Source of the DNA: an uncultured Solirubrobacterales bacterium
GTDB taxonomy: Bacteria; Actinomycetota; Thermoleophilia; Solirubrobacterales; Solirubrobacteraceae
Length of the DNA: 64,000 nucleotides
Direction of reading: 5' to 3'
NCBI GenBank assembly: GCA_963697945.1
Contig: OY969105.1
Coordinates: 3,035,269-3,099,268, forward strand
Position numbers and translations under genes: made by a program. Below are positions 3,082 through 57,529 of this stretch, piece after piece. The notes under the pieces were generated by a model, which saw nothing but the letters and a program-made list of their open reading frames with translations, was not told the origin of the DNA and did not search any database. Each line of letters opens with the position of its first letter. Within the stretch, counting starts at the first letter, position 1.

Positions 3082-4185
3082 ATGAGCCTGCTCGACTATT
3101 ACCGCCAGTTCGAAGGGATGTCCGAGGAGGAGGTCAACGCGGAGCTACGCGAGGGGGCGGACGAGCGCAAACGCAAAGCGCTCATGCGCGTCGAGACGCT
3201 CGACCTCTCCCAAACGACGTGGCCCGAGCTGCCCCATCCGAGCATCGTCAGCGCGATCACGTTCGTGGCGCGCCGCGGCATGCAGCGCTACCCGCACCTG
3301 CGTGGCTCCCAGCTGCACGACGAGCTCGCCGAGCGCCACGGCGTGGACTCCGCCAGAGTGATCCTCGGCAACGGCGCCGCCGAGCTGCTGAGCTCCGCGA
3401 CACGCGCGCTGCTGGAGCCCGGACAGCGACTGCTGAGCGCGTGGCCTTCCTATCCCCTGTTTCCGATCATGGCCCGCCGCGCCCACGGGCAGGCGGTGCG
3501 TGTGTCCGGTGGCGTCGATGCCCTGCTGGAGGAGGCCCATCGCACGCCCGGCACGCGCGTGATCGCGATCGCCAGCCCGAACGACCCCACCGGCGAGCTG
3601 CTACCCAGGGCCGAACTCGAACGCCTCCTGGCGGGGCTCCCCGACGACGTGGCGGTGCTGCTGGACGAGTCGCTCGTGGAGTTCTCCGACGCCCAACCGG
3701 TCAACTCCTCGCTGCAGCTCGCGGCCGAGCATTCGCGGCTGTTCGTCGTGCGCAGCTTCTCCAAGGCCTGGGGCCTGGCGGGGCTGCGTGTGGGTTATGC
3801 GATCGGCGGGCCCGGATCGGAGGAGCTACTGGCGGAGCTGGCGCCCGACCTGGGCGTCTCGGAGGTCTCCCAGGCGGGCGCACTGGAAGCGCTTCGCGCG
3901 TGCTCGGAGATCGTCGACCGGCGCGTGAGCGCGATCGCGCGCGAGCGCACGGTCGTGACCGACGGCCTGCGTGAGCGCGGATTCGACGTTGCCGACAGCC
4001 AGGCGAACTTCGTCTGGGCGGCCCATCCGAGCGTCGATGGCGGCGAGCTCTCCGCACGGTTGTCCCGCGCCGGGATCCTCGTCGCCGGGGGCGCCGCCCT
4101 GGGCGAGCCCCGGCACGTGCGCATCGCGTTGCGCGACTCGCGCGCGAGCGAGCGTTTGCTTGAGGCGATCGACAAGTCGCTGTAG
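3082..4185 (+). CDS. PLP-dependent class I/II aminotransferase, histidinol-phosphate aminotransferase-like
   Basis: ILGNGAAELL, SPNDPTG, LLDE, PLP-lysine motif RSFSKAWGLAGLRVGY, SQANF. Confidence 0.88.
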   Translation: MSLLDYYRQFEGMSEEEVNAELREGADERKRKALMRVETLDLSQTTWPELPHPSIVSAITFVARRGMQRYPHLRGSQLHDELAERHGVDSARVILGNGAAELLSSATRALLEPGQRLLSAWPSYPLFPIMARRAHGQAVRVSGGVDALLEEAHRTPGTRVIAIASPNDPTGELLPRAELERLLAGLPDDVAVLLDESLVEFSDAQPVNSSLQLAAEHSRLFVVRSFSKAWGLAGLRVGYAIGGPGSEELLAELAPDLGVSEVSQAGALEALRACSEIVDRRVSAIARERTVVTDGLRERGFDVADSQANFVWAAHPSVDGGELSARLSRAGILVAGGAALGEPRHVRIALRDSRASERLLEAIDKSL

Positions 4186-4191
4186 GGCGTT

Positions 4192-4336
4192 CTGAGCGGT
4201 GCATGCACCGCTCAGCGGAGTCGTACATGTACGACTCCGTGACGAGCCGCATGCGGCTCGTCATCCGATGGGCGCATGCGCCCATCGGCGGGACCGCACA
4301 TGTGCGGTCCCGGGCAGGGCCGCATGCGGCCCTGCC
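4192..4336. repeat. Array 1 of six tandem 24-bp perfect palindromes centred on CATG
   Basis: Units 4192-4215, 4216-4239, 4240-4263, 4265-4288, 4289-4312, 4313-4336; each is a 10-bp arm + CATG + the exact reverse complement, checked base by base. Confidence 0.97.
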
Positions 4337-4344
4337 GTCCTTCC

Positions 4345-5670
4345 CTAGCCCGCGAGTCCCGACTGGCGCAGCAGCGCTCCGGTGGTGCCCTCGAGGATCT
4401 TCCGCCAGGCGCTCGCCTGCTCGGGCTCGACCTCGTCGAAGTGTTCCACGACCGCGCGCAGGCGCTCACCGGAGATGTTCAGCCCGTGGCGCTCGGCGAC
4501 CTCGCGGTAGTGCTCGTATTCGCCCGCCAGGTGCCGCGTGACCGACTGAAACCCGTGCTTGCCAATCTCAACGCGCGAGGCGAAGCTCATGATGGACGTC
4601 TGGAACATCAGCTTGTCAGCGGGCTCGGGCTCGATCAGGATGATGTCCACACCCGGATAGCGCTCGCCCCAGCGCTCGGCCAGCTCGTGCAGGCGCTGGT
4701 GGGCGAGCAGCTTGAACGCCTGATAGCCGATCTGCGGAAAGCCCATGTCCGAGACGCGCTTCGCGCGCACCCCGCCGAGCGTGCGGACGGTCTCCGAGAA
4801 GTCGTTCACGAACGGCACGATCGGGTTGATCACGACCACGAGCTTGGCCCCGGCTTCGACGGCGATGTCGAGGTTCGTGGTCGATACGAGCCCGCCGTCG
4901 ACCAGCTCGCGCTCGCCGACCGTCACCGGTGCGTACACCATCGGCAGCGCCCCCGAAGCTCGCACGGCAGTGGAGATCGGCACGCCCTGTAAACCGTTGT
5001 CGCGCCCGAACACCACCCGCTCGCACGTATCCAGATCGGTCGCCGTCAGGTACAGCTCGTGGCGTAGTTGGGTGAAGTCGTCGGTGCGCCCCGGCTCGCT
5101 CAGCACCTTGCGCAGGTACTCCTCGATTCCCTCGCCCGTGTACGCGCCCGAGGGCAGGCCCTCGGCGAAGCCCAACAGCACGTCCATCACCGACACCTGC
5201 CCGCGCTGGCGCACCACGTCGCGTGCCAACCCGAGCGCGCGCCACGGCAGCATCGCGCCCTTGCGCACGAGCTCGGTCAGGTTGGGGCGCAGCAGATCGC
5301 CGAGATCGATGTCCTCGAACGGCGATGGCGCCTGGTGGGTGACGACCTGCATCATCTCCTCGGGCGTCACCCCGTTCGCGCACAGCGCCGCGATGAACGA
5401 GCCGGCGGAGGTGCCGACGTAGATGTCGAACTGGTTCACCGTGCTGTTCGTCGCCAACAGGTCGAGCGCGCGCAGCGCACCGATCTCATAGACGCCACCG
5501 GTGAACCCTCCACCGCCGAGCACCAGCGCGGTCTTGTCGCTGCGCCGGCGCCGGCGTCGCCTGGTGGTGCTCGCCCCGATCGCCGCCCGGGCCGAGGATC
5601 GCGCGCGTGGACTGCTCGCGGAGCCGTTCGACCGCCCTGTTGCCGGTTCCAGCTTGACAACGCGTCCCAT
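4345..5670 (-). CDS. Patatin-like phospholipase
   Basis: LVLGGGGFTGG, GTSAG nucleophile elbow and DGG motif; start placed at ATG 5670 (MGRVVKLEP). Confidence 0.9.
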   Translation of the reverse strand: MGRVVKLEPATGRSNGSASSPRARSSARAAIGASTTRRRRRRRSDKTALVLGGGGFTGGVYEIGALRALDLLATNSTVNQFDIYVGTSAGSFIAALCANGVTPEEMMQVVTHQAPSPFEDIDLGDLLRPNLTELVRKGAMLPWRALGLARDVVRQRGQVSVMDVLLGFAEGLPSGAYTGEGIEEYLRKVLSEPGRTDDFTQLRHELYLTATDLDTCERVVFGRDNGLQGVPISTAVRASGALPMVYAPVTVGERELVDGGLVSTTNLDIAVEAGAKLVVVINPIVPFVNDFSETVRTLGGVRAKRVSDMGFPQIGYQAFKLLAHQRLHELAERWGERYPGVDIILIEPEPADKLMFQTSIMSFASRVEIGKHGFQSVTRHLAGEYEHYREVAERHGLNISGERLRAVVEHFDEVEPEQASAWRKILEGTTGALLRQSGLAG

Positions 5671-5694: not shown

Positions 5695-6960
5695 GTGACT
5701 CGGAACCGGATTGCCCACACCCTGATCCTGCTCTGCGGGGCGCTCTCGACCCTCTGCGGCCTGCCCGCCGTGGCCGGTGCGGCGACGGTCAGCCTCGCCG
5801 GGTTGCAGGCCGATCTGACCCACCAGCTGGCCCTCGCCGGGCCCGCGGATGGGGCCTACGTGTATGACGTGAGCGCCCACCAGGCCCTCTTCTCCGAGCG
5901 CGCGACCACGCTACGCCCGCCCGCGTCGGTACAGAAGCTCTACACCGCCACGGCCCTGCTCGCGCGCATGGGGACGACCGGCCGGTTGAGTACGACCGTC
6001 TACGGAGTCGGGCGGCTCGCGCCTGGCGGGGTGTGGGAAGGCGACCTGTATCTGCGCGGCGGCGGCGACCCTACGTTCGGCTCCAGCGCGTTCATCCGCG
6101 CTCACTACGGCGGCATCGGCGCCTCTGTCTCGACGCTCGCCACACAGCTGGTCCACAGCGCGGGGATCCATCGCATCACCGGCCGAGTAGTGGGAGACGA
6201 GTCGTGGTTTGACTCGCTGCGCGGTGAGCCCTCAAGCAACTATGCGCCCGACCCGTTTCTCGAAGGCACGCTCTCGGGCTTGGCCTTCAATCGCGGCGCG
6301 AGCGGCTCCGAACGCGGCGCACACGCTCCCGCGGCGTTTGCGGCACGTGAGCTGTGGGCGAACTTGAAGAACGACGGCGTCGCGATCGCCGGTCACAGCG
6401 GCGCCGCGAGCATGCCTCCGGGGGCCACTCAGCTCGCGCGCGTCCAGTCGCCCACCGCCACCCAGCTGCTGGGCCTGACGCTGCCACCGTCGGACAATTT
6501 TTTCGCCGAGACGCTCGTCAAGGACCTCGGCGCGATGTACGCCGGCGCCGGCACCACCGCGGCCGGCGCGTCGGTCGTACGTCAGACGATCGCCTCGCTG
6601 CTCGGCATCCACCCGCACGTCGTGGACGGCTCGGGTCTCTCGGAATCCGATCTGACCTCGCCGTATGAGGTCACCGACCTGCTCGTCGAGCTGGCCTCGA
6701 CGCCGATCGGTCCGGTGTTGCGCGGCGATCTGGCGATCGCAGGACATACCGGGACGCTGGCCACGCGCATGCGCCATACCGGCGCCTCGGGGCGCTGTCA
6801 GGGCAAGACCGGCACGCTCACGGGCGTCTCCAACCTCGCCGGCTACTGCACCGCCGCAAACGGCCACACGCTTGCGTTCGCGCTCTTCACCGACGGGATC
6901 GCCACGGAAGCCGCGCACGTCTTCCAGGATCACATGGCGATCACGATCGCCGGTTACTAG
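5695..6960 (+). CDS. dacB: D-alanyl-D-alanine carboxypeptidase/endopeptidase (PBP4, peptidase S13)
   Basis: Signal peptide from GTG 5695; SxxK (PASVQKL), GDLYLRGGGDP, SDN, DGSGLS and KTG motifs. Confidence 0.9.
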   Translation: MTRNRIAHTLILLCGALSTLCGLPAVAGAATVSLAGLQADLTHQLALAGPADGAYVYDVSAHQALFSERATTLRPPASVQKLYTATALLARMGTTGRLSTTVYGVGRLAPGGVWEGDLYLRGGGDPTFGSSAFIRAHYGGIGASVSTLATQLVHSAGIHRITGRVVGDESWFDSLRGEPSSNYAPDPFLEGTLSGLAFNRGASGSERGAHAPAAFAARELWANLKNDGVAIAGHSGAASMPPGATQLARVQSPTATQLLGLTLPPSDNFFAETLVKDLGAMYAGAGTTAAGASVVRQTIASLLGIHPHVVDGSGLSESDLTSPYEVTDLLVELASTPIGPVLRGDLAIAGHTGTLATRMRHTGASGRCQGKTGTLTGVSNLAGYCTAANGHTLAFALFTDGIATEAAHVFQDHMAITIAGY

Positions 6961-7935
6961 AGGCTTGATGCGGGTTTATCGTCCGTCGTAGGCGGCGAGT
7001 GCTCGGGGTGGACGTCCGGCGAGGATGTTGATGTGCATTGCGAGGGTGAGGGCGAGGAGGCGTTGCGCGATGCGTTGTACGAGCCCTCCGAGTGTCTTGG
7101 CGAGGTGGTCTTCTAGGCGCATTTGGCGCTTGAGGTTGGAGAACACGCTCTCGATGACCAGGCGTACGCGTGCCTTGACGATCTCGCTGGCGGGGCGTGG
7201 ACCAGGACGGTGGCGCTCGGGCGTGATGAGTTGGACATTGATGAGTTCCATGCAATCTCGGTACTCCTTCCCCCAAAAGCCCTTATCGGCAAAGAGTGTG
7301 CTGCCGGAATGCGCGGCCGCCAACTCCAACGCACGTTCACGCTCTTGCCCGGTCTTGGGACCTGTGAGGTCATAACCGACGGGAACACCCTTTGCGTCGC
7401 TGATGAGCACAAGGCGCATTCCCCACACGAACAGGCTCTTGGATGGGCAGTAGCCGTAACTGGCATGCCCGGCGAACTCGCTGAACGATGCGCAGCCTGG
7501 ATAGTTGGCGCACGCGATCAGCGTTCCGTCGACCAGTCGCACCTGTCCATCGGCGATCAACTCGGCGACCATCATCTGCACCGTTGTGATCTGAGGTGTG
7601 AGCCGTCTAAGCCTGCGGTTGTACTGCGACTGGCCAGGTAACTCGGGGAAGAACCCGGGCAGCAACCGGCCGATCACACCCAAAAACTGGCGGTCTGAAC
7701 AGATCCCCGTCACCGCCTGGGCGACCCCCACCGCGATCAGCTCCTGATCTGTGACCTTGCCAGGTGGGCCCGGGCGAGGAATCGACAACGAGCAGGCGAA
7801 TACGTAGGCTGCAACAACGAGGGTCTCCAGCGAAGCGTCCATCTCGTGCTCCAATCACGAGTTGACAAGGGCTGGGGACCCTCTTCTCATCCCACCACCA
7901 CGATTCCTGCCCACCACCCAACCCGCATCAAGCCT
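6961..7935 (-). mobile_element. IS982-family insertion sequence, copy 1 (975 bp)
   Basis: Perfect 16-bp terminal IR AGGCTTGATGCGGGTT/AACCCGCATCAAGCCT; CTAG repeated on both flanks (6957-6960, 7936-7939); second copy at 52351-53325. Confidence 0.92.
6976..7842 (-). CDS. IS982-family DDE transposase
   Basis: KVTDQEL..FPELPGQSQYNRRLRRL N-terminus; DDE triad in VDGT, ADKGF, IESVFSNLK; GGAG RBS before ATG 7842. Confidence 0.88.
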   Translation of the reverse strand: MDASLETLVVAAYVFACSLSIPRPGPPGKVTDQELIAVGVAQAVTGICSDRQFLGVIGRLLPGFFPELPGQSQYNRRLRRLTPQITTVQMMVAELIADGQVRLVDGTLIACANYPGCASFSEFAGHASYGYCPSKSLFVWGMRLVLISDAKGVPVGYDLTGPKTGQERERALELAAAHSGSTLFADKGFWGKEYRDCMELINVQLITPERHRPGPRPASEIVKARVRLVIESVFSNLKRQMRLEDHLAKTLGGLVQRIAQRLLALTLAMHINILAGRPPRALAAYDGR

Positions 7936-23494: not shown

Positions 23495-24408
23495 CAGCGG
23501 GGACCTCCGCCGCCGCCACCGGAGCGAGGACCACGTCCCCCTCCTCCACCTCCGGGACCACGTCCACCACCACCGCCGCCCCCGCGACCGCCGGGACCGC
23601 CGAAACCGCCGCCGCGACCGCCACGTCCACCGCCCGGTCCGCCGCCGCGACCGCCGGGACCACCACTACCGCCGCGTCCACGCCCGCGCCCGTCACGCCC
23701 GTCGCGCCCTCCGCGCCCGTCACGATCGTTGCCGGGAGGGGCCGGCGCGGTCATGTCGGTGAGGTCAGCGCCGGTGTATCCCTCGGGCATGATCTCGCCC
23801 TTGTTCACCCAGCACTTGACGCCGATGCGCCCAAACGTCGTGCGCGCCTCGTAGAAGCCGTAGTCGATGTCGGCGCGCATCGTGTGCAGCGGCACGCGGC
23901 CGTCGGAGTAGCTTTCGGTGCGCGCCATCTCGGCGCCGCCCAGACGGCCCGCGACCTGCACCTTTACGCCCTTGGCGCCGGAGCGCATCGCGCTTGTCAG
24001 CGCACGCTTCATCGCGCGACGGAAGGCGACACGGTTTTGCAGTTGCTCGGCGATCGACTGCGCGACCAGCTTGGCATCGAGCTCCGGGCGCTTGATCTCG
24101 AGAATGTTGACCTTGATCTGCTTGGAGGTCAGGCGATGAAGATCGCGGCGCAGCGCGTCGACTTCGGTGCCGGACTTGCCGATCACGATGCCCGGGCGAG
24201 CGGTGTGGATGTTGACCTCGAGTTCGTTCGCGTCCTTGCGAATCGTGATGTCTGAGAGGCCGGCGTGCGCAAGCTTGCCGATGATGTGTTCGCGCACGCG
24301 AATGTCCTCGGCGAGATACTCGGAGAACGAGCGCTCGTTGAACCAGTTCGACTTCCAGTCATGGATGTAGCCGACGCGCATCGCCTCGGGGTGAACCTTT
24401 TGTCCCAT
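23494..24408 (-). CDS. rpsC: 30S ribosomal protein S3 with Gly/Arg-rich C-terminal tail
   Basis: [35 protein letters not shown]. Confidence 0.98.
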
Positions 24409-25425: not shown

Positions 25426-25529
25426 CCACGGATACGTAGGGCAAGCTGGGCAAGGACGCAGTGAGCGAAGTGTGCTGTGCACACGAGTGATCGAGGACGC
25501 CGATCCAGCGCCGCCATACGTGTTCGTGG
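25426..25529 (+). repeat. Structured ~104-bp dispersed element, copy A
   Basis: 13-bp outer stem CCACGGATACGTA/TACGTGTTCGTGG, inner GCTGG/CCAGC, AGGACGC direct repeats, apical GTGTGC-TGT-GCACAC. Confidence 0.8.
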
Positions 25530-30099: not shown

Positions 30100-30205
30100 C
30101 TGAGAGGGCCGTGAGTCGAGCGAGACAAGGACGCAGGGAGCGTGGCGTACTACGTACGCGAGCGACCGAGGACGCAGTATCGCGAAGCGCTCACGGTCAT
30201 CTCAG
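30100..30205 (+). repeat. Structured ~104-bp dispersed element, copy B
   Basis: Outer stems CTGAGA/TCTCAG and GGCCGTGAG/CTCACGGTC, two AGGACGCAG, apical GCGTAC-TAC-GTACGC. Confidence 0.8.
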
Positions 30206-33136: not shown

Positions 33137-34627
33137 CTACGCCCCGAGCGGCTCGACCGCGGCCTCAGCGCCGGCGGCCTCGCGCGTGAGCTTCGCGCGC
33201 GGATTCTCGGCCCGTGCCAGCACCAGACACGGGATCAGCGACAGCAGCGCGATTGCCAGGGCCCACCAGTAGGCCGAGTTGAACGCGCTCGCGAGCTGCG
33301 CCGGCGTGGACGCGTGGGCGCCGGCGCGTTGCAGCACGACCGCGAGCACCGCCACTCCGATCGCCCCGCCGACACGCTGGAGCATGTTCAGCTGCGGCGT
33401 CGCGTCGGAGAGCTCCTCCGGTCGCAGTGCCGTGAACGCGGCGGTCATCGCGGGCATGAACGACAGCCCGATGCCCACGCCGCGCACGGCCAGCACGAGT
33501 GAAATCGCGACGATCGAGGTGTTCGCTCCGATCAGCACGAACGGGACCGTGCTCAGACACAGGATCGAGACGCCGACGATCGCCACGCGACCGCCCCCGA
33601 AGCGTTCGGTGAGGCGTCCGTTGAGCGGTCCGACGAGCAGCATCCCCAGCCCTTGCGGGCCGACGAGCAGGCCCGTGACGATGATGCTCTCGCCGCGCAC
33701 CTCCTGGTAGTAGAGCGGGATCAAAATCATCGCGCCGAACAGCGAGGCGCCCAGCCCGAACGTCGTCAGCGAGGCCGCCCCGAAGACGCGGTTCTTATAC
33801 AGACGGATGTCAAGCAGCGGACGCTCGACCCGCAGCGCGTGCCAACCGAACGCAAGCGTCAGCGCGACCCCGACCAGCAGCGGCCAGATCACGCTCGGGG
33901 CGGTGAGGCTGGCGTTCGTGCCGAGCTCCGACAGGCCATACACGACCGCGGTGGCGCCCGTCGAGATCAGTGCCAGGCCGAGCACGTCCAGCTGTCCGGC
34001 CTCGCCGGACTCGGTCTTCGGCAGCATCCGCCAGCCGAGCACGAACGCGACCACGCCGATCGGGACGTTGACGAGGAAGATCCACGACCAGTGCAGCTCC
34101 TGCAGGATCACGCCCCCGACCACCGGCCCGAGGATCGGTGCGAGCATCGCGGGCATCACCACGACGCCCATCACGCGACCCATCCGCTTGGGGCCCGCGA
34201 CCTGGGCCATGATCAGCTGAGCGATCGGCATGATCATCCCGCCGCCGGCTCCCTGCAGCACGCGAAAGAACACGAGCGTCGTCAGCGAGCCGGCCACCGC
34301 GCACAGTCCCGAGCCGGCCGTGAACAGCACCAGCGAGACCAGATACACGCGCTTGGCCCCGAACCGCCGTGCCGCCCATCCAGTCACCGGGATGACCGCC
34401 GCCAGCGCGAGCAGATAGCCGGTTACGACCCACTGCACTTGGGAGATCGAGCTGTGCAGATCGTGCCCGAGCGTGTGCAGCGCGACGTTCACGATGGTCG
34501 TGTCGAGGATCGACATGATCATCCCCAGGATCACCACGCCGGCGATCTTCCAGACGTAGGGCTCGATGTGATCTGAGGCCTCCGGGTGAAAGCCCGGATC
34601 GGCTGCGGTTGTCGGAGAGGAAGACAT
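33137..34627 (-). CDS. DHA2 (EmrB/QacA-type) MFS efflux transporter
   Basis: LDTTIVNVAL, QWVVTGYLLA, RRFGAKR, RVLQGAGGG, GPVVGG; about 14 TM. Confidence 0.92.
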   Translation of the reverse strand: MSSSPTTAADPGFHPEASDHIEPYVWKIAGVVILGMIMSILDTTIVNVALHTLGHDLHSSISQVQWVVTGYLLALAAVIPVTGWAARRFGAKRVYLVSLVLFTAGSGLCAVAGSLTTLVFFRVLQGAGGGMIMPIAQLIMAQVAGPKRMGRVMGVVVMPAMLAPILGPVVGGVILQELHWSWIFLVNVPIGVVAFVLGWRMLPKTESGEAGQLDVLGLALISTGATAVVYGLSELGTNASLTAPSVIWPLLVGVALTLAFGWHALRVERPLLDIRLYKNRVFGAASLTTFGLGASLFGAMILIPLYYQEVRGESIIVTGLLVGPQGLGMLLVGPLNGRLTERFGGGRVAIVGVSILCLSTVPFVLIGANTSIVAISLVLAVRGVGIGLSFMPAMTAAFTALRPEELSDATPQLNMLQRVGGAIGVAVLAVVLQRAGAHASTPAQLASAFNSAYWWALAIALLSLIPCLVLARAENPRAKLTREAAGAEAAVEPLGA

Positions 34628-34667
34628 TTGGTACCGAAAGTTTAGGTACCAAACCTTATTTCTTCAA
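34627..34667 (-). promoter_or_regulatory. Promoter TTGAAG-17-TAAACT overlapped by a 27-bp inverted repeat (probable MarR operator)
   Basis: -35 at 34662-34667 and -10 at 34639-34644 on the minus strand; palindrome TTTGGTACC-GAAAGTTTA-GGTACCAAA at 34627-34653. Confidence 0.75.
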
Positions 34668-34686: not shown

Positions 34687-34832
34687 CTGCTCGGCGCATG
34701 CGCCGAGCAGCGGGGGCGCGCATGCGCGCCCCCGAACGGGCCGCACATGTGCGGCCCGGGCGTCGCCACATGTGGCGACGCCTTGCGGGCGGTGCATGCA
34801 CCGCCCGCCGACCCCGCGCATGCGCGGGGTCG
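34687..34832. repeat. Array 2 of six tandem CATG-centred perfect palindromes
   Basis: Units 34687-34710, 34711-34734, 34737-34758 (22 bp), 34759-34782, 34785-34808, 34809-34832. Confidence 0.97.
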
Positions 34833-34887: not shown

Positions 34888-34991
34888 GTAGCGGTTCGAG
34901 GACCAAGCGGACCGCGGACGCAGGGAGCGAAGTGTGCTCTGCACATGAGCGACCGAGGACAAAGGTCCGCGCCGCGTCCTCGGGCCGCTAC
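34888..34991 (+). repeat. Structured ~104-bp dispersed element, copy C
   Basis: 16-bp outer stem GTAGCGGTTCGAGGAC/GTCCTCGGGCCGCTAC, inner GCGGACC/GGTCCGC, apical GTGTGC-TCT-GCACAT. Confidence 0.8.
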
Positions 34992-35458
34992 CAGCGGTAA
35001 TGGGCGAAGGCCTTGTTGGCCTGGGCCATGCGGTAAATGTCGTCCTTGCGCTTATACGCACCGCCCTGCTGAGACTGGGCGTCCAACAGCTCGTTGGCCA
35101 GTCGCTGGGCCATCGTCTTCTCGCGGCGCTGGCGCGCGAACTCGACCAGCCAGCGCACCGCCAGCGTACGCGCGCGGCGCGAAGCAACCTCGACGGGGAC
35201 CTGATAGGTGGCGCCACCGACGCGGCGCGATTTGACCTCAAGGGTCGGCGTGAGCGCCTTGATCGAGGCCTCGAGCGTCTCGATCGGGTCTTTGTCCGAG
35301 CGCTCCCCCAACAGTGCCAGCGCGTCGTAGACGATCCGCTCGGCCGTCGACTTCTTGCCGTCGAGCATCACCTTGTTGATCACCTGCTGGACCAGCTTCG
35401 AGCGATGTATCGGGTCCGCCTCCACGGGGCGAATTTGGGCGGCTGCGCGTCTGGGCAT
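34988..35458 (-). CDS. rpsG: 30S ribosomal protein S7
   Basis: [38 protein letters not shown]. Confidence 0.98.
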
Positions 35459-35464
35459 GAATCG

Positions 35465-35860
35465 TTACTTTTTCTTCACGCCGTACTGCGAGCGGGCCTT
35501 CTTGCGATCGCTCACGCCGGCGGCGTCGAGCGTGCCACGCACGACCTTGTAGCGAACACCCGGCAAGTCCTTGACGCGTCCACCGCGCACGAGCACCACC
35601 GAGTGCTCCTGCAAGTTGTGGCCCTCACCGGGGATGTAAGCGGTGACCTCGATCGACCCGGAGATGCGAATACGCGCAACCTTGCGCAGCGCGGAGTTAG
35701 GCTTCTTCGGTGTGGTCGTATACACACGCGTGCACACCCCGCGACGCTGTGGCGCCGCGACCTTCTTCTTGCGCCCCTTGCCCGACTTCAGGCCAGGAGT
35801 CGCCAGCTTCTTCTTGGGGGCCACGCGCCCCTTGCGCACGAGCTGTGATGTGGTCGGCAT
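35465..35860 (-). CDS. rpsL: 30S ribosomal protein S12
   Basis: [36 protein letters not shown]; start ATG 35860. Confidence 0.98.
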
Positions 35861-35910
35861 TCGGCCGGGGATGGTAGCAGCGCGGCGCGCCCGTGCGAGC
35901 GATCGGGTCG

Positions 35911-36801
35911 CTAAGCCGTCGCCGAGGCCGCAGCGGGAACTCCCGCCGCGCGGACGGGAGCGGGCATCAACGCGCACGCGACGACCACGAGCACGAACGC
36001 CAGCGACTGCAGTACCACGCCCACGGGGCTGGCCGCCATCGGGTCGCCGAACACGACGATCCCTCCGGCGATACCCGCGATGTTCGCGGCCGTTCCGGTC
36101 ACCGCGATGACGGGCACGGCGTCTCCGTCTTGGAGTCCGCGCGCGGACGCGTAGAACGCGACGATCGAGGCGAGCAGTGCGACCGCCAGCCAGGGGCTGA
36201 GCAGGAGCGCGAGCAGACCGTGTGCTCCCGTGATGCCCGACAGCGCCTTGATGGCCGTGTCTGAGACCCCGAACAGGATCCCGGAAGCGGCGCCCAGCAT
36301 CACACCGTGATGCTCCACGGGGCCACCCATGCGCGGCCCCATGATCAAGAGGCCGCCCAACCCGAACAGGCCGGCCTCAAAGGAGATCATCGCCGCCTGC
36401 GAAAACTGCGAGTGCGCGCCGTGCATCGCCGGCAGCGTCACGCCGAGCATCACCAAACCCACGCCGGTCAGACACAGGCCGATCCACTGACGGCGACCGA
36501 CCGCGAAACCGAACATGCGATCGGCCATCACCGCGATGAACACGATGCCGGCCGCCAGCGAGACCTGGATTACCGACATCGGTGCCAGCGTGAGGGCCGC
36601 CACATGCAGAGCCCAACTGGCGGTCGCGACGATCATGCCGATCGTGAACCACTTCGAGGCGAACAGCGCTCGGGCCGAACGCAGCGGATGGCGCACCTGC
36701 ACGCTCGGGGCGGCGTTGGCGCCCCGATACTTGTAAAAGAAGCCGAGGTTCGCGACGAACGCGCACGCGAGTGCCAGGAGGATGCCGAGGGCGAGGGTCA
36801 T
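35911..36801 (-). CDS. DMT-superfamily-like multi-pass membrane protein
   Basis: About 9-10 hydrophobic segments; [18 protein letters not shown] resembles DMT/EamA-type repeats. Confidence 0.6.
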
Positions 36802-48912: not shown

Positions 48913-49334
48913 GAGGCCACCTCCACGCCCATCGAGCGCGCCGTCCCCGCGATGATCTTCGCGGCCTGGTCGACGTCGTGGGCGTTCAAATCCGCGAGCT
49001 TGCGCTCGGCGATCTCCCGCAGCTGCGCCTGGGTGATCGTGCCGACCTTCGTGCGGTTGGGCTCGCCCGAGCCCTTGCCGATGCGCAGCGCCTGCTTGAT
49101 CAGCACGGCCGCGGGAGGCGTCTTGGTGACGAACGTGAACGAACGATCCTCATAAACGGTGATCACGACCGGGATCGTGGTCCCGGTTTCGGACTGCGTC
49201 TGCGCGTTGAAGGCCTTGCAGAACTCCATGATGTTGATCCCGTGCTGACCCAGCGCAGGACCGACCGGCGGGGCCGGGCTGGCCTGGCCGCCGTTGGCTT
49301 GGAGCTTTATCGTTGTGAGTACCTTCTTGGCCAT
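48909..49334 (-). CDS. rplK: 50S ribosomal protein L11
   Basis: [33 protein letters not shown]. Confidence 0.98.
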
Positions 49335-49384
49335 ATCGAACGCCTAGGTTAGCTGCGATTGACTGGGATTGTCTTCTTGATGTC

Positions 49385-49528
49385 GCCCACGGCGCGTGCG
49401 CCGTGGGCCGCAGGCGCGCATGCGCGCCTGCGTGGGAGCCGCACATGTGCGGCTCCACCGGCGGCGCATGCGCCGCCGGCCAGACGGGCGCATGCGCCCG
49501 TCTGCGGGTCGGTACATGTACCGACCCG
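49385..49528. repeat. Array 3 of six tandem CATG-centred palindromes
   Basis: Units 49385-49408 (core CGTG), 49409-49432, 49435-49456 (22 bp), 49458-49479 (22 bp), 49481-49504, 49505-49528. Confidence 0.97.
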
Positions 49529-49531
49529 GTC

Positions 49532-50056
49532 CTAAATCTTTTTTACCTGATCAAAACCCACCTCTACGGGGGTCTCGCGGCCGAAGATTGATACCAGGAC
49601 CTTCAACTTGGCCGCGTCCTCGTTGATCTCCGAGATCTCCCCCGAGAAGTCCGAGAGCGGTCCGGAGACCACCTTGACGGACTCGCCGATCTGAAACTGC
49701 GCGCGCGTGCGCGGCGCCGTGGCGACGTCGGTCTTGTGCAACAGCCGATCGACCTCGACCTGGGTCAGCGGCACGGGCTCCTGGGAGGCGCCGACGAAGC
49801 CGGTCACGCCGGGGGTGCCCTTGACGACGCCCCAGGAGTCCTCGTTGAGCTCCATGTTCACGAGCACATAGCCGGGCATCGTGCGCTTCTCCACGGTGAC
49901 CTTCTGGTTGTCCTTCATCTCCGAGACGGACTCGGTCGGGACGACCACGTTGCGCACGGCGCGCTGCTGGCCGAGCGAGATCACGCGATGCTCGAGGTTC
50001 TGTTTGACCTTGTTCTCGTGGCCTGAATAAGTGTTGACGACGTACCAGCGAAACAT
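49532..50056 (-). CDS. nusG: Transcription termination/antitermination factor NusG
   Basis: WYVVNTYSGHENKV, PGYVLVNM, KOW GESVKVVSGP, VSIFGRETPVE. Confidence 0.98.
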   Translation of the reverse strand: MFRWYVVNTYSGHENKVKQNLEHRVISLGQQRAVRNVVVPTESVSEMKDNQKVTVEKRTMPGYVLVNMELNEDSWGVVKGTPGVTGFVGASQEPVPLTQVEVDRLLHKTDVATAPRTRAQFQIGESVKVVSGPLSDFSGEISEINEDAAKLKVLVSIFGRETPVEVGFDQVKKI

Positions 50057-50106: not shown

Positions 50107-50703
50107 TCAGAGGATGAAATCGACGACTTCCTTTGCCACATAGTCCGCGAGGCCTAGGTAGGCGCCGGCGATCGCGACGAAACCGAGGACGACCGCGGTG
50201 GCCGAAAAGACGTGGCGGCGGTCGGGCCATTGAACCCGCTGAAGCTCCGCCCAGCTGGCGCGCAGAAAGCCGATCGCGCGGTTGCCTTTGCGGATCGGTG
50301 CGCCCGAGGCCTGCTCGGGGCTGACGCCGCCTCCCCTACCGCGCCCTCCGCCGGCGCCCTCCTGCAGTTCGTCCTCGGTGAGATCGCCCTCGGCCTCCGC
50401 CTCGGCCTCGATCTCGGCCTCGGAGAGCGTCTCGGCGTTCGCGGCGACTCCGTGGGCGCCGGCGATGAGTGCGGCGTCGAACTCGTCGACGTCTCCCGCG
50501 TGCTCCAGCGCGCCGGGCAGGTCGGCTCGCTCGACCCGACCCAGCTCGTGCGCAGGCGACGACGCAGCTGACGGGGCGGCTGTGGTCTGAGCGTCCGCCG
50601 CCCCATCCTCGGGCGCAGCCGGCTCGGGACCCGTGCCAGGGCCAGGTCTCGCGGCGCCACGGCGGGCGCGACGTTGCTTTGCGCGTTTGCGATCACGGGC
50701 CAC
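50107..50703 (-). CDS. secE: Preprotein translocase SecE with long N-terminal extension
   Basis: C-terminal FLRASWAELQRVQWP followed by one TM segment; lies between rpmG and nusG. Confidence 0.9.
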   Translation of the reverse strand: MARDRKRAKQRRARRGAARPGPGTGPEPAAPEDGAADAQTTAAPSAASSPAHELGRVERADLPGALEHAGDVDEFDAALIAGAHGVAANAETLSEAEIEAEAEAEGDLTEDELQEGAGGGRGRGGGVSPEQASGAPIRKGNRAIGFLRASWAELQRVQWPDRRHVFSATAVVLGFVAIAGAYLGLADYVAKEVVDFIL

Positions 50704-52247: not shown

Positions 52248-52350
52248 CTAGACGGCCGGGAGGCAAGAGAGGCAAGAACGCAGGAGGCGAGGCGTACTAC
52301 GTACGCGAGCCGACGAGGACGCAGCATCTCGCCGCCTCCCGACCGTCTAG
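52248..52350 (+). repeat. Structured ~104-bp dispersed element, copy D
   Basis: 17-bp outer stem CTAGACGGCCGGGAGGC/GCCTCCCGACCGTCTAG (1 mismatch), apical GCGTAC-TAC-GTACGC, GAGGACGCAG. Confidence 0.8.
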
Positions 52351-53325
52351 AGGCTTGATGCGGGTTTATCGTCCGTCGTAGGCGGCGAGTGCTCGGGGTG
52401 GACGTCCGGCGAGGATGTTGATGTGCATTGCGAGGGTGAGGGCGAGGAGGCGTTGCGCGATGCGTTGTACGAGCCCTCCGAGTGTCTTGGCGAGGTGGTC
52501 TTCTAGGCGCATTTGGCGCTTGAGGTTGGAGAACACGCTCTCGATGACCAGGCGTACGCGTGCCTTGACGATCTCGCTGGCGGGGCGTGGACCAGGACGG
52601 TGGCGCTCGGGCGTGATGAGTTGGACATTGATGAGTTCCATGCAATCTCGGTACTCCTTCCCCCAAAAGCCCTTATCGGCAAAGAGTGTGCTGCCGGAAT
52701 GCGCGGCCGCCAACTCCAACGCACGTTCACGCTCTTGCCCGGTCTTGGGACCTGTGAGGTCATAACCGACGGGAACACCCTTTGCGTCGCTGATGAGCAC
52801 AAGGCGCATTCCCCACACGAACAGGCTCTTGGATGGGCAGTAGCCGTAACTGGCATGCCCGGCGAACTCGCTGAACGATGCGCAGCCTGGATAGTTGGCG
52901 CACGCGATCAGCGTTCCGTCGACCAGTCGCACCTGTCCATCGGCGATCAACTCGGCGACCATCATCTGCACCGTTGTGATCTGAGGTGTGAGCCGTCTAA
53001 GCCTGCGGTTGTACTGCGACTGGCCAGGTAACTCGGGGAAGAACCCGGGCAGCAACCGGCCGATCACACCCAAAAACTGGCGGTCTGAACAGATCCCCGT
53101 CACCGCCTGGGCGACCCCCACCGCGATCAGCTCCTGATCTGTGACCTTGCCAGGTGGGCCCGGGCGAGGAATCGACAACGAGCAGGCGAATACGTAGGCT
53201 GCAACAACGAGGGTCTCCAGCGAAGCGTCCATCTCGTGCTCCAATCACGAGTTGACAAGGGCTGGGGACCCTCTTCTCATCCCACCACCACGATTCCTGC
53301 CCACCACCCAACCCGCATCAAGCCT
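52351..53325 (-). mobile_element. IS982-family insertion sequence, copy 2 (975 bp)
   Basis: Same IRs, length and ORF translations as copy 1; CTAG at 52347-52350 and 53326-53329. Confidence 0.92.
52366..53232 (-). CDS. IS982-family DDE transposase
   Basis: Translation identical to the copy 1 transposase. Confidence 0.88.
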   Translation of the reverse strand: MDASLETLVVAAYVFACSLSIPRPGPPGKVTDQELIAVGVAQAVTGICSDRQFLGVIGRLLPGFFPELPGQSQYNRRLRRLTPQITTVQMMVAELIADGQVRLVDGTLIACANYPGCASFSEFAGHASYGYCPSKSLFVWGMRLVLISDAKGVPVGYDLTGPKTGQERERALELAAAHSGSTLFADKGFWGKEYRDCMELINVQLITPERHRPGPRPASEIVKARVRLVIESVFSNLKRQMRLEDHLAKTLGGLVQRIAQRLLALTLAMHINILAGRPPRALAAYDGR

Positions 53326-56337: not shown

Positions 56338-56494
56338 GCCTTCTGGCTGCCCCGGCGCCCCGGCGCGCGTTTCAGACCGACGGCTGAGCCTTCTTCGGGC
56401 TGCCCCGGCGCCCGGCGCGCGTTTCAGACCGACGGCTGAGCCTTCTTCGGGCTGCCCCGGCGCCCCGGCGCGCGTTTCAGACCGACGGCTGAGC
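56286..56494. repeat. Tandem repeat, four copies of a 50-53-bp unit
   Basis: TCAGACCGACGGCTGAGC recurs at 56322, 56372, 56424 and 56477 with near-identical linkers. Confidence 0.9.
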
Positions 56495-57529
56495 GTCGTG
56501 CGCGCCGCCGCGCGGGCGATCGGGAGCGGAAAGCCACTCCTCCAGAGTCGTCTGACGGCCGGGCGGCGTAGCGGAGTCGATCTCCGCACGCAGCTCCGAG
56601 AGCAGCGAATGGCGCTCGGCCAGGACGTTGTGCTGATGGATCGTCTCCAGATTCTCCTGACGCGCGGAGACGAAGCTCGCGCCGTCCAGCTCCGGAAAGC
56701 GTGCGACGACGCCCGCGAGCATCTCGCGCACGCAATCCTCGACGAACCGCGGGCGGGCGTGGGCCCGTTCGACGACCGCCACCTCGTCGCTGCGCTTCAT
56801 CAGCTCGTAGATCTCCGAGGACATGCTCGACTCGACGATCTCAAGCAGCGCCCGCGCGTCGATCTCGACGTCGCACTCCTCGATACACCCGATCTGCAGC
56901 GTGCCCAGGCCGCGCTGATTGTGGGTCGCCACGGGCACCCGCGCGAGGATGCGCTCGATCTGTTCCTCCGTGAAGCCATCGGTGCGCAGACGCTCGCCCG
57001 CGCGCCCAGCGATCAGCTCCTGCGCGCACGGGCAGGCGGTCATGCCGGTGGCGGAGACGCCCACGACGCGGCGAGTGCCGTGTTCGTGCGCCACCGCGCG
57101 CCCGAGGAGCGTGTAGATCTCTTGAGTTTCCACTCCCGAGACCGGCGCGGGCTTGTGCTCGGGGTAACGCGCCGCGATCGTGACTTCCGCGCGCAACGCA
57201 TCCTGGCGGGCGCGCACCAACTCGGCGATGTGCTGGGCCAGCGTCTCGGCGCGAAACGGGGACTCGCTGAGAACGACCTCGCCGATCGCCTCGTTGACGA
57301 CCTCCTCGAAGCGAGACATGTGCGCGCCCTTCTGACCGGAACTCAGATCCACGAAACAGGACAGGCGCGCGAAGAACAGCTCCTCGCGGATGCGCACCAC
57401 CTTCTCCACGCCCGTCACGCCCACCCGCGACAGGCCGATCGGCACCGAGGGCGCCCGCGCCTGAACGTCGTCGCCCAAAGGATGCGTCGGAGACAGCGTG
57501 TTGATCTGCCGGGTCGCCTGCACCAGCAC
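56477..57529 (-). CDS. folE2: GTP cyclohydrolase I, FolE2/MptA type
   Basis: DDVQ, VGVTGV, KGAHMSRF, GMTACPC, ATHNQRG, YELMKRSDE, PRFVED, ETIHQHN. Confidence 0.92.
   Translation of the reverse strand: MLVQATRQINTLSPTHPLGDDVQARAPSVPIGLSRVGVTGVEKVVRIREELFFARLSCFVDLSSGQKGAHMSRFEEVVNEAIGEVVLSESPFRAETLAQHIAELVRARQDALRAEVTIAARYPEHKPAPVSGVETQEIYTLLGRAVAHEHGTRRVVGVSATGMTACPCAQELIAGRAGERLRTDGFTEEQIERILARVPVATHNQRGLGTLQIGCIEECDVEIDARALLEIVESSMSSEIYELMKRSDEVAVVERAHARPRFVEDCVREMLAGVVARFPELDGASFVSARQENLETIHQHNVLAERHSLLSELRAEIDSATPPGRQTTLEEWLSAPDRPRGGAHDAQPSV

Follow-up and report, generated by a model that had tools for sequence, protein, structure and literature searches.

Array A3, a row of six head-to-tail palindromic units between nusG and rplK (positions 49385-49528, no strand assigned), is on balance probably a member of a family of dispersed non-coding repeats that is specific to the lineage of uncultured Solirubrobacterales. 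We read it as a hairpin-array repeat similar to REP/BIME elements or TRITs, with arms kept symmetric at the DNA level and a probable role as hairpin barrier at 3' ends; the stated confidence refers to this explanation as a whole. The element joins a sequence-specific centre to structure-specific arms. The family of CATG hairpin arrays is previously undescribed, as full-text literature searches returned no description of such arrays, and its nearest analogues by position, polymorphism and structure are REP/BIME elements and TRITs. All positions refer to the window, i.e. the whole stretch of 64,000 nucleotides that was analysed (67% G+C).

The genes around array A3 are encoded on the minus strand: secE (50107-50703), nusG (49532-50056, TAG stop at 49532-49534), rplK for L11 (48909-49334) as well as rplA, rplJ and rplL. 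From the nusG stop to the rplK ATG (49334) the gap measures 197 nt and contains the array, which begins 3 nt past the nusG stop, as stated in an earlier note on this DNA, and lies 50 nt upstream of rplK. The units are abutting palindromes of 22-24 nt, consisting of G+C-rich arms of 9-10 bp which flank a 4-nt centre, with centre-to-centre spacings of 24, 25, 23, 24 and 24 nt. Unit 1 (49385-49408) has the arms GCCCACGGCG and CGCCGTGGGC around a centre reading CGTG (49395-49398), while the centre is CATG in units 2 (49409-49432, arm CGCAGGCGCG), 3 (49435-49456, 9-bp arm GGAGCCGCA), 4 (49458-49479, 9-bp arm CCGGCGGCG), 5 (49481-49504, arm CAGACGGGCG) and 6 (49505-49528, arm CGGGTCGGTA). Unit 3 is of a common type that recurs in other arrays. 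On re-examination the six arms given by the earlier note matched exactly. The array is predicted to fold as six separate hairpins, with -136.8 kcal/mol (z -9.3) for RNA and -80 kcal/mol (z -9.5) for DNA.

Two further arrays of six units each are present in the window. Array A1 (4192-4336) is located between convergent genes, a class I/II aminotransferase gene whose stop is 6 nt off and a patatin-like gene whose stop is 8 nt off. Array A2 (34687-34832) is found 155 nt past the rpsG stop and 59 nt ahead of the start of an MFS transporter gene. A2 and A3 are collinear with 74% identity over 89 nt and have the 25/23 spacing irregularity in common; between A1 and A3, two-unit blocks are 81% alike. 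The window holds 21 perfect palindromes of at least 16 nt, 17 of which are CATG-centred units of 22-24 nt, all within the three clusters A1, A2 and A3. By our own estimate, about 0.05 perfect palindromes of at least 22 nt are expected by chance per 64 kb at the window composition, versus the 17 seen. Sampling without the requirement for four centres yielded the three six-unit arrays and no isolated unit, and the spacing pattern of four RCATGY centres gave 8 matches in the window versus none in 100 shuffles. An origin by chance, from low-complexity sequence or as assembly artefact, for which nothing speaks beyond the G+C-rich background, thus has a negligible probability in our view: apart from the shuffles, the same array A3 is present in independent assemblies and technologies (loci L016 and L121, runs X1-X6) and control pattern matches outside the clade have no paired arms.

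Several other repeats and elements were observed in the window. Another family of intergenic repeats, whose conserved core CAAGGACGCAGGGAGCGAAGTGTGCTnCGCACACGAGCGACCGAGGACGC measures ~50-60 nt, occurs at 25428-25509, 30103-30184, 34890-34971 and 52250-52331, one of these copies being placed between array A2 and the rpsG stop, and also in L136 (2022-2185) and L133 (787-965); it has no Rfam match at gathering score. rpsL-rpsG (34988-35977) are followed by this repeat, array A2 and the MFS transporter gene (33137-34627) instead of fusA-tuf. A small, operator-like palindrome, GGTACCgaaagtttaGGTACC, extends from the upstream flank of the MFS gene into its first bases (about 34631-34651). Two IS copies (~6957-7860 and ~52347-53250), identical over at least their first 300 nt and with the same ORFs, encode a 292-aa DDE_Tnp_1 (PF01609) transposase. 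They were considered as the element linked to the arrays and rejected, being ordinary IS neither of which adjoins an array in the window. A 52-53-nt tandem repeat in three copies is located at 56340-56512, and a C/G-rich repeat with 9/12-nt periodicity, probably coding for a Gly/Pro-rich protein segment, at 23519-23692.

The distribution of the family was determined by scanning one genome per species of Bacteria and Archaea for the RCATGY spacing pattern of A3 type (at least four centres). The scan returned at least 119 loci; together with the window, at least 80 arrays with at least 369 units were collected, mostly of 4-6 units per array (range 3-8). Among the matches listed, all loci with paired arms belong to MAGs assigned to Solirubrobacterales or Solirubrobacteraceae, plus one labelled only Actinomycetota, whereas what matched in other taxa proved to be microsatellites or 24-nt tandem repeats that are unrelated and lack paired arms. 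Moreover, several matches per MAG are found among those listed. A link to phages was discarded, as none of 109 pattern matches in IMG/VR viral contigs has paired arms.

The centre of the units is nearly invariant. Among the matches listed, it reads CATG in 361 of 369 units (98%), with GCATGC (260) and ACATGT (101) as central 6-mers; the eight other centres include four single-base variants and three self-complementary A/T-rich ones (TATA twice, ATAT once). The arms in turn are free in sequence but strictly paired. In the same 369 units, the pairs 1-9 counted from the centre are mismatched in 10 of 3321 cases, with no G-T wobble. An alignment of 148 units shows zero one-sided changes and zero G-U at these pairs, along with 27-82 two-sided changes per pair, and yields a covariation score of 0.83 versus 0.24 when shuffled and 0.13-0.19 with slid partners. 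Pair 10 is formed in 82% of the units among the matches listed. Pair 11 is formed in 6% as Watson-Crick pair (15% allowing G-U) and thus falls below the slid controls of 36-48%, which indicates that stems are actively limited to 10 bp.

At the level of sequence the units have little in common. The 369 units among the matches listed carry 295 distinct arms, whose consensus CGGrGCGGYR is weak; 5' arms are rich in purines. All 18 units of the window differ, random units agree at 4.5 of 10 arm positions and neighbouring units are no more similar than that (4.3 of 10). No arm is repeated within one array in any of the 80 arrays among the matches listed. Since arms are not repeated and neighbours are unlike, the units of an array cannot cross-pair. 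Certain unit types (GGCAGGGCCG, CGAGGCCGCA, CCGGTCGGCG) nevertheless recur across genomes. Tandem Repeats Finder did not see a 24-nt period because the units are too dissimilar; what is repeated is the structure and the centre of 4-6 nt. Three other readings of the periodicity were dismissed: a 72-nt super-repeat of three units, with a lag-3 similarity (4.67/10) barely above random (4.51), translated 8-codon units of 24 nt, the frame of which is broken by spacings of 23, 25 and 26 nt, and restriction avoidance, given that the 204 CATG sites of the window are no fewer than the 194 expected.

The orthologous array A3 in the MAG locus L016 differs by four arm substitutions, all four of which are compensated (A:T <-> G:C) and none uncompensated. 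They comprise a G>A / C>T pair in unit 4 and two pair changes in unit 5. Four additional metagenomes from soil or rhizosphere contain related strains, whose contigs provide further variants: 49411C>T together with 49430G>A in unit 2 (run X2), 49513T>C together with 49520A>G in unit 6 (X5 and X6, as well as L016), and a triple change at 49501-49503 that is mirrored in the opposite arm. The proposal of the earlier note that arms are kept paired, in agreement with hairpins, is borne out by these paired variants, by L016 and by the 148 aligned units. As far as can be read from such comparisons, the compensated evolution shows that the arms pair within one strand. Relative to L016, 4 of 58 arm pairs have changed (7%), while at four-fold degenerate sites the divergence is 18% in nusG and 27% in rplK. 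Arms thus evolve about three times slower than synonymous sites and are constrained as well as symmetric, so that correction alone would be insufficient and selection is needed as well.

The CGTG of unit 1 was confirmed as the sole non-self-complementary centre among the 18 window units. The earlier note had taken it as a sign that the centre tolerates change, which is not supported by the family, whose most conserved part is the centre. Position 49396 is A in L016, L121 and the contigs of X2-X6; G occurs solely in the window and in run X1. As judged from these loci, the CGTG is a private, derived SNP and provides no evidence for tolerance by the centre. The earlier note had also allowed for a sequencing error. 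The variant cannot be so called; run X1, which is from the same study and shares 92% of sampled words with the window, is possibly the window's source sample.

Both the fixed centre and the symmetry could seemingly be explained by a binding array in double-stranded DNA, in which a dimeric protein of nucleoid, partition or regulator type recognises RCATGY once per 24 bp and coats the tract. The invariant RCATGY, the strict 24-bp phasing and a symmetry of both strands without G-T would all agree with that, as would, as weak evidence, the fact that array units are unseen in RNA contigs (see below). Variable arms would however need no self-complementarity for such binding and half-sites would drift apart, yet all arm changes are compensated; the avoided 11th pair is a rule about stem length rather than about a duplex, and there is neither a regulator gene nearby nor a common gene context. 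We therefore regard the duplex-binding array as improbable.

A second reading would be a structured RNA that serves as sponge of the CsrB/Rsm type or as regulatory module in 3' UTRs, with an RNA-binding protein attached to its CAUG tetraloops. Similar to CsrB/RsmW sponges and MAEB (PMC1950547), the arrays line up several hairpins whose loops are conserved and whose stems covary, which is the architecture of sponge RNAs, and among the Rfam matches below threshold RsmW ranks first (30-31 bits). Those RNAs, in contrast, tolerate G-U and occur in one orientation; their loops or linkers are purine-rich (GGA) and they are transcribed from promoters of their own. The arrays have CAUG loops and zero G-U in ~1330 stem cells (pairs 1-9), unlike helices selected as RNA; they are found in both orientations relative to flanking genes (15 versus 7, p=0.13), no promoter of their own was found, and array units are missing from metatranscriptome contigs, which counts as weak evidence. 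In Rfam, only a tRNA reaches the gathering score and the sub-threshold matches are generic hairpins. Membership in the CsrB/Rsm clan (Rfam CL00106) was rejected on the basis of the RsmW score, which is far under the gathering score of 52 bits, and of the loops being CAUG instead of GGA. A role as RNA module is accordingly quite improbable.

Array A3 is an insertion, as relatives with empty nusG-rplK sites indicate. Among 80 metagenome loci with NusG of 88-98% identity, the orthologous array was found in L121 only. In L120, L124 and others the TAA stop of nusG overlaps the rplK ATG as TAATG, and many other relatives have nusG-rplK gaps of 2-15 nt. A contig of X5 joins 49334 to 49538 via five letters, which likewise results in an empty TAATG site. 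The empty orthologous gap that the earlier note had proposed to look for in relatives thus exists. Another group of relatives without the array has a gap of ~160 nt filled by a repeat of CAAGGACGCAGGGAGCGAAGTGTGCTnCGCACACGAGCGACCGAGGACGC type. For array A1 an empty allele is present in an X6 contig that joins 4185 to 4347 with 12 nt in between; in a second X6 allele, units 1-3 are replaced by 80 different letters. At some sites the arrays are long-lived. Downstream of a cyclophilin gene, an array is present at the same place in four species (83-93% protein identity), the units of which are widely diverged and differ in number while their palindromes are still perfect. At this site, L049 (3393-4700) has an extra 1.2-kb antisense gene and 8-9-nt tandem repeats similar to GTCTAGCG which abut the array.

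A different, partly rearranged nusG-rplK gap was observed in L126 (1849-2334). It measures 485 nt and consists of about four tandem copies of a ~70-nt block. Its units are chimeric: left and right arms that stem from different units meet at CATG. Such units are non-palindromic and have not been corrected. The arrangement suggests, as judged from the sequence, recombination at the centres followed by duplication.

The two ends of an array differ. About half of the arrays have ..(C)TGTT on one side (AACAnCATC when read outward), and pyrimidines prevail on the other side (CCCTA, TTCCT). The loci L084 (3026-3270), L099 (3495-3521), L004 (4646-4673), L083 (1238-1267) and L005 (4360-4387) carry a longer, A/T-rich end, CATGCTTATAAAAAGCTGATG(n)TGTT, and in the loci examined the CATGCTTATAAAAAGCTGATG motif was found solely beside arrays. 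Only in L084 is a flank of 26 nt inverted on both sides, so that a 12-bp outer stem could close the whole array. The orientation of the asymmetric ends relative to transcription shows no significant bias in the counts given above. Flanking 2-4-mers match at chance rate, providing no sign of a target-site duplication, and GTC...GTC around array A3 was set aside as coincidence on this basis. A fixed insertion target was not seen at the two empty sites (A3 and A1). We found no near-identical recent array copy, no recurrent neighbour gene when the 614 proteins predicted around 80 arrays (8-kb pieces) were clustered all against all, and no transposase between paired arrays, where the genes are ordinary metabolic ones. 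As a mobilising gene, a target-site duplication and a near-identical copy were all missing, we infer mobility from presence and absence alone.

A rather unlikely reading is that the arrays are self-maintaining elements, in which a putative dedicated enzyme would read the CATG-loop hairpin of 10 bp in single-stranded DNA, spread the arrays and copy arm to arm. Candidates would be a nuclease similar to HUH/Y1 enzymes or a system that cleaves mismatches, e.g. the actinobacterial NucS acting on extruded stems. If this were true, the palindromes would owe their perfection to the enzyme instead of to selection per site, and the family would form a partnership of REP/RAYT type in which both the chemistry and the logic of recognition are new, the latter resting on a constant loop, a free stem and a measured length.

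The position of arrays relative to genes was evaluated with our own crude codon-usage gene caller, trained on the array loci. Among the matches listed, 65 arrays are located in 39 tandem, 17 convergent and 9 divergent gaps. Compared to background gene pairs (72% tandem, 12.5% convergent, 16% divergent), convergent gaps are enriched about 2-fold (26% versus 12.5%); divergent gaps, with 14% of arrays, have the same share as in the background and are not depleted. Stops pointing into arrays are within 10 nt in 26 of 73 cases and within 20 nt in 35 of 73, and arrays in tandem gaps are closer to the upstream stop than to the downstream start in 30 of 39 (both among the matches listed). TAG is over-represented at stops adjacent to arrays (≤ 30 nt), accounting for 27 of 44 (61%) versus 35% overall (p=0.0004), often as GTAG or TAGG. 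This excess could reflect a target preference or a stop supplied by the element.

The location right after stops, the enrichment in convergent gaps and the high stability of the hairpins would be in line with plain intrinsic (Rho-independent) terminators that are bidirectional as palindromes and stacked for efficiency. The tails argue against it. At least five T within the 10 nt past the last hairpin are found in 2 of 79 arrays among the matches listed, and a terminator scan detected no terminator-like site in array A3 or its tail. Mycobacterial RNA polymerase requires a U-tract for intrinsic termination in vitro (PMC3993855), which together with the missing U-tracts makes canonical termination unlikely. 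Moreover, part of the arrays lie in divergent gaps, a single hairpin would be enough, and neither the constant CATG loop nor the number of 4-8 units is explained. Assignment to canonical intrinsic terminators was hence rejected, the structure being a G+C-rich hairpin without immediate U-tract, and we consider plain terminators an unlikely explanation. No RNA run was found to contain array A3. In four soil metatranscriptomes no contigs match array units, the common unit types included, which is weak evidence and tells little in either direction as these are assembled contigs and G+C-rich hairpins sequence poorly; two of the four contain nusG and rplK of relatives at high depth with the gap not covered.

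The gene positions also bear on a device that acts as DNA only, i.e. a cruciform or single-strand hairpin that absorbs supercoils or pauses or marks replication, with no role as RNA. The DNA-level symmetry, the flexible CA/TG centre within G+C-rich arms and the DNA folding score given above would suit it, and BIMEs of E. coli are known to bind gyrase. Arrays are however located downstream of genes, where positive supercoiling disfavours extrusion, and are not enriched in divergent gaps. G+C-rich arms of 10 bp furthermore extrude slowly. A pure DNA device is accordingly quite improbable as well.

Our preferred explanation, the hairpin-array repeat with DNA-level symmetry and a barrier function at 3' ends, would operate in three steps. 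First, the symmetry of the arms would be kept at the DNA level, likely by hairpin-templated correction through template switching at quasipalindromes in replication or repair, combined with selection. Quasipalindrome template-switch mutation, where synthesis uses one arm as template for the other, is documented (PMC7202029). Such maintenance in DNA is suggested by the fact that G-T/G-U is absent, that the arrays behave alike in either orientation and that no single-arm intermediates are seen, and correction at this level would in turn explain why wobble pairs and single-arm intermediates are missing. The slow arms and the capped stem length imply that selection or a length-measuring protein must act as well. 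Second, a putative protein, either a mobilising enzyme or a hairpin-binding factor, may read the CATG centre together with the constant stem of 10 bp and the two unlike ends (..TGTT | units | CCCTA..), and the invariant centre argues for sequence-specific recognition.

Third, every unit would form its own hairpin in the transcript because the units of an array cannot cross-pair, and the row of six would represent a very stable barrier or insulator at the 3' end, as assumed for REP/BIME elements and mycobacterial TRITs. With this barrier in place, the nusG message would be ended or protected and rplK would be uncoupled from it; rplK may then use its own conserved leader. The 50-nt leader (49335-49384, minus strand) occurs only together with array A3, and its array-proximal GACATC fits the family end motif (A/G)ACAnCATC. 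TAACCT (49351-49346), proposed by the earlier note as a possible -10 of rplK, is located 11 nt upstream of the rplK ATG within a block of 32 nt that is identical in L016 in spite of 18-27% synonymous divergence and thus fits a functional rplK leader or promoter. A promoter scan detected no two-hexamer promoter of sigma-70 type around TAACCT or array A3. The identity of the block would fit start signals of rplK's own at this site. When transcribed, array A3 would most likely have the effect of a 3'-end barrier that insulates nusG from rplK.

The array family resembles REP/BIME elements in many respects, yet as judged from our analysis it belongs to no described family, since it lacks a shared unit sequence and the GTAG/CGTC tag. 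REP elements are short, clustered extragenic palindromes of 20-40 bp (PMC3733652, PMC2817692), comparable to the units of 24 nt with stems of 9-10 bp. They lie downstream of genes (PMC3733652), mostly between ORFs that are unidirectional or convergent, similar to the 56 of 65 arrays in tandem or convergent gaps (among the matches listed, own gene caller). Both show presence/absence polymorphism, and REPs are regarded as mobile DNA of the non-autonomous kind which works in the form of RNA hairpins. Copies of REP, in contrast, share a family sequence and are imperfect palindromes, while each unit here has its own arms, a perfect palindrome and a constant centre of 4-6 nt. REP carries an unpaired GTAG/CGTC tag; between array units there are 0-2 nt and no conserved tetranucleotide, and the GTAG at some array edges appears solely as stop-codon context. 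BIMEs alternate the orientation of REPs with linkers, whereas array units abut in a 24-nt phase. REP copies number ~100 or more per genome; the 64 kb of the window hold 3 arrays (18 units), and several matches per MAG are among those listed. The RAYT (a Y1 transposase) that accompanies REP/BIME is flanked by repeats. No recurrent gene adjoins the arrays within the 8-kb pieces, and we know of no RAYT in the Solirubrobacterales clade. The REP survey (PMC3733652) does not mention Actinobacteria.

TRITs, palindromic elements that hug stop codons in Mycobacterium (PMC3152330), are likewise actinobacterial, lineage-restricted and form a bidirectional hairpin; there are ~150 copies with no canonical U-tract and a binding factor was proposed. 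As compared by description, they differ in being a single, sequence-conserved hairpin that overlaps the stop (about -8) and is restricted to Mycobacterium, whereas the arrays consist of 4-8 hairpins with variable stems, start 0-10 nt past the stop and belong to Solirubrobacterales. MITEs and the PATEs derived from IS200/IS605 are also small non-coding insertions rich in hairpins, and derivatives of IS200/IS605 share with the arrays the missing target-site duplication, the general lack of terminal inverted repeats and two different ends. The terminal inverted repeats and target-site duplications of MITEs are absent here (apart from the inverted flank of L084), and PATEs, the hairpins of which are read as single-stranded DNA in genomes that encode TnpA, insert beside a fixed target of 4-5 nt, for which the two empty sites give no indication. 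Unlike in both, no related transposase or near-identical copies were found in the loci examined, and the body is a phased array of palindromes instead of two subterminal hairpins. With CRISPR the arrays have in common short palindromic units at regular spacing; they differ by having no constant repeat, no spacers and no cas genes nearby (neighbours are ribosomal or metabolic), and by occurring as several small arrays.

In practical terms, such arrays will break assemblies, confuse predictors of CRISPR and terminators and yield spurious ORFs in MAG annotation. Uncultured Solirubrobacterales are abundant in soils. REP-like elements are poorly known in Actinomycetota, and we found none described for these soil bacteria. 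The family separates a sequence signal, the invariant RCATGY centre, from a pure structure signal, the free, perfectly complementary stems of fixed length, two signals that are usually confounded. Hundreds of units that evolve by compensated double changes with no wobble intermediates represent a natural test bed for the upkeep of palindromes, i.e. for the question of template-switch correction versus selection, and likewise for how tandem hairpins 0-10 nt past stops relate to termination, mRNA decay and translational coupling.
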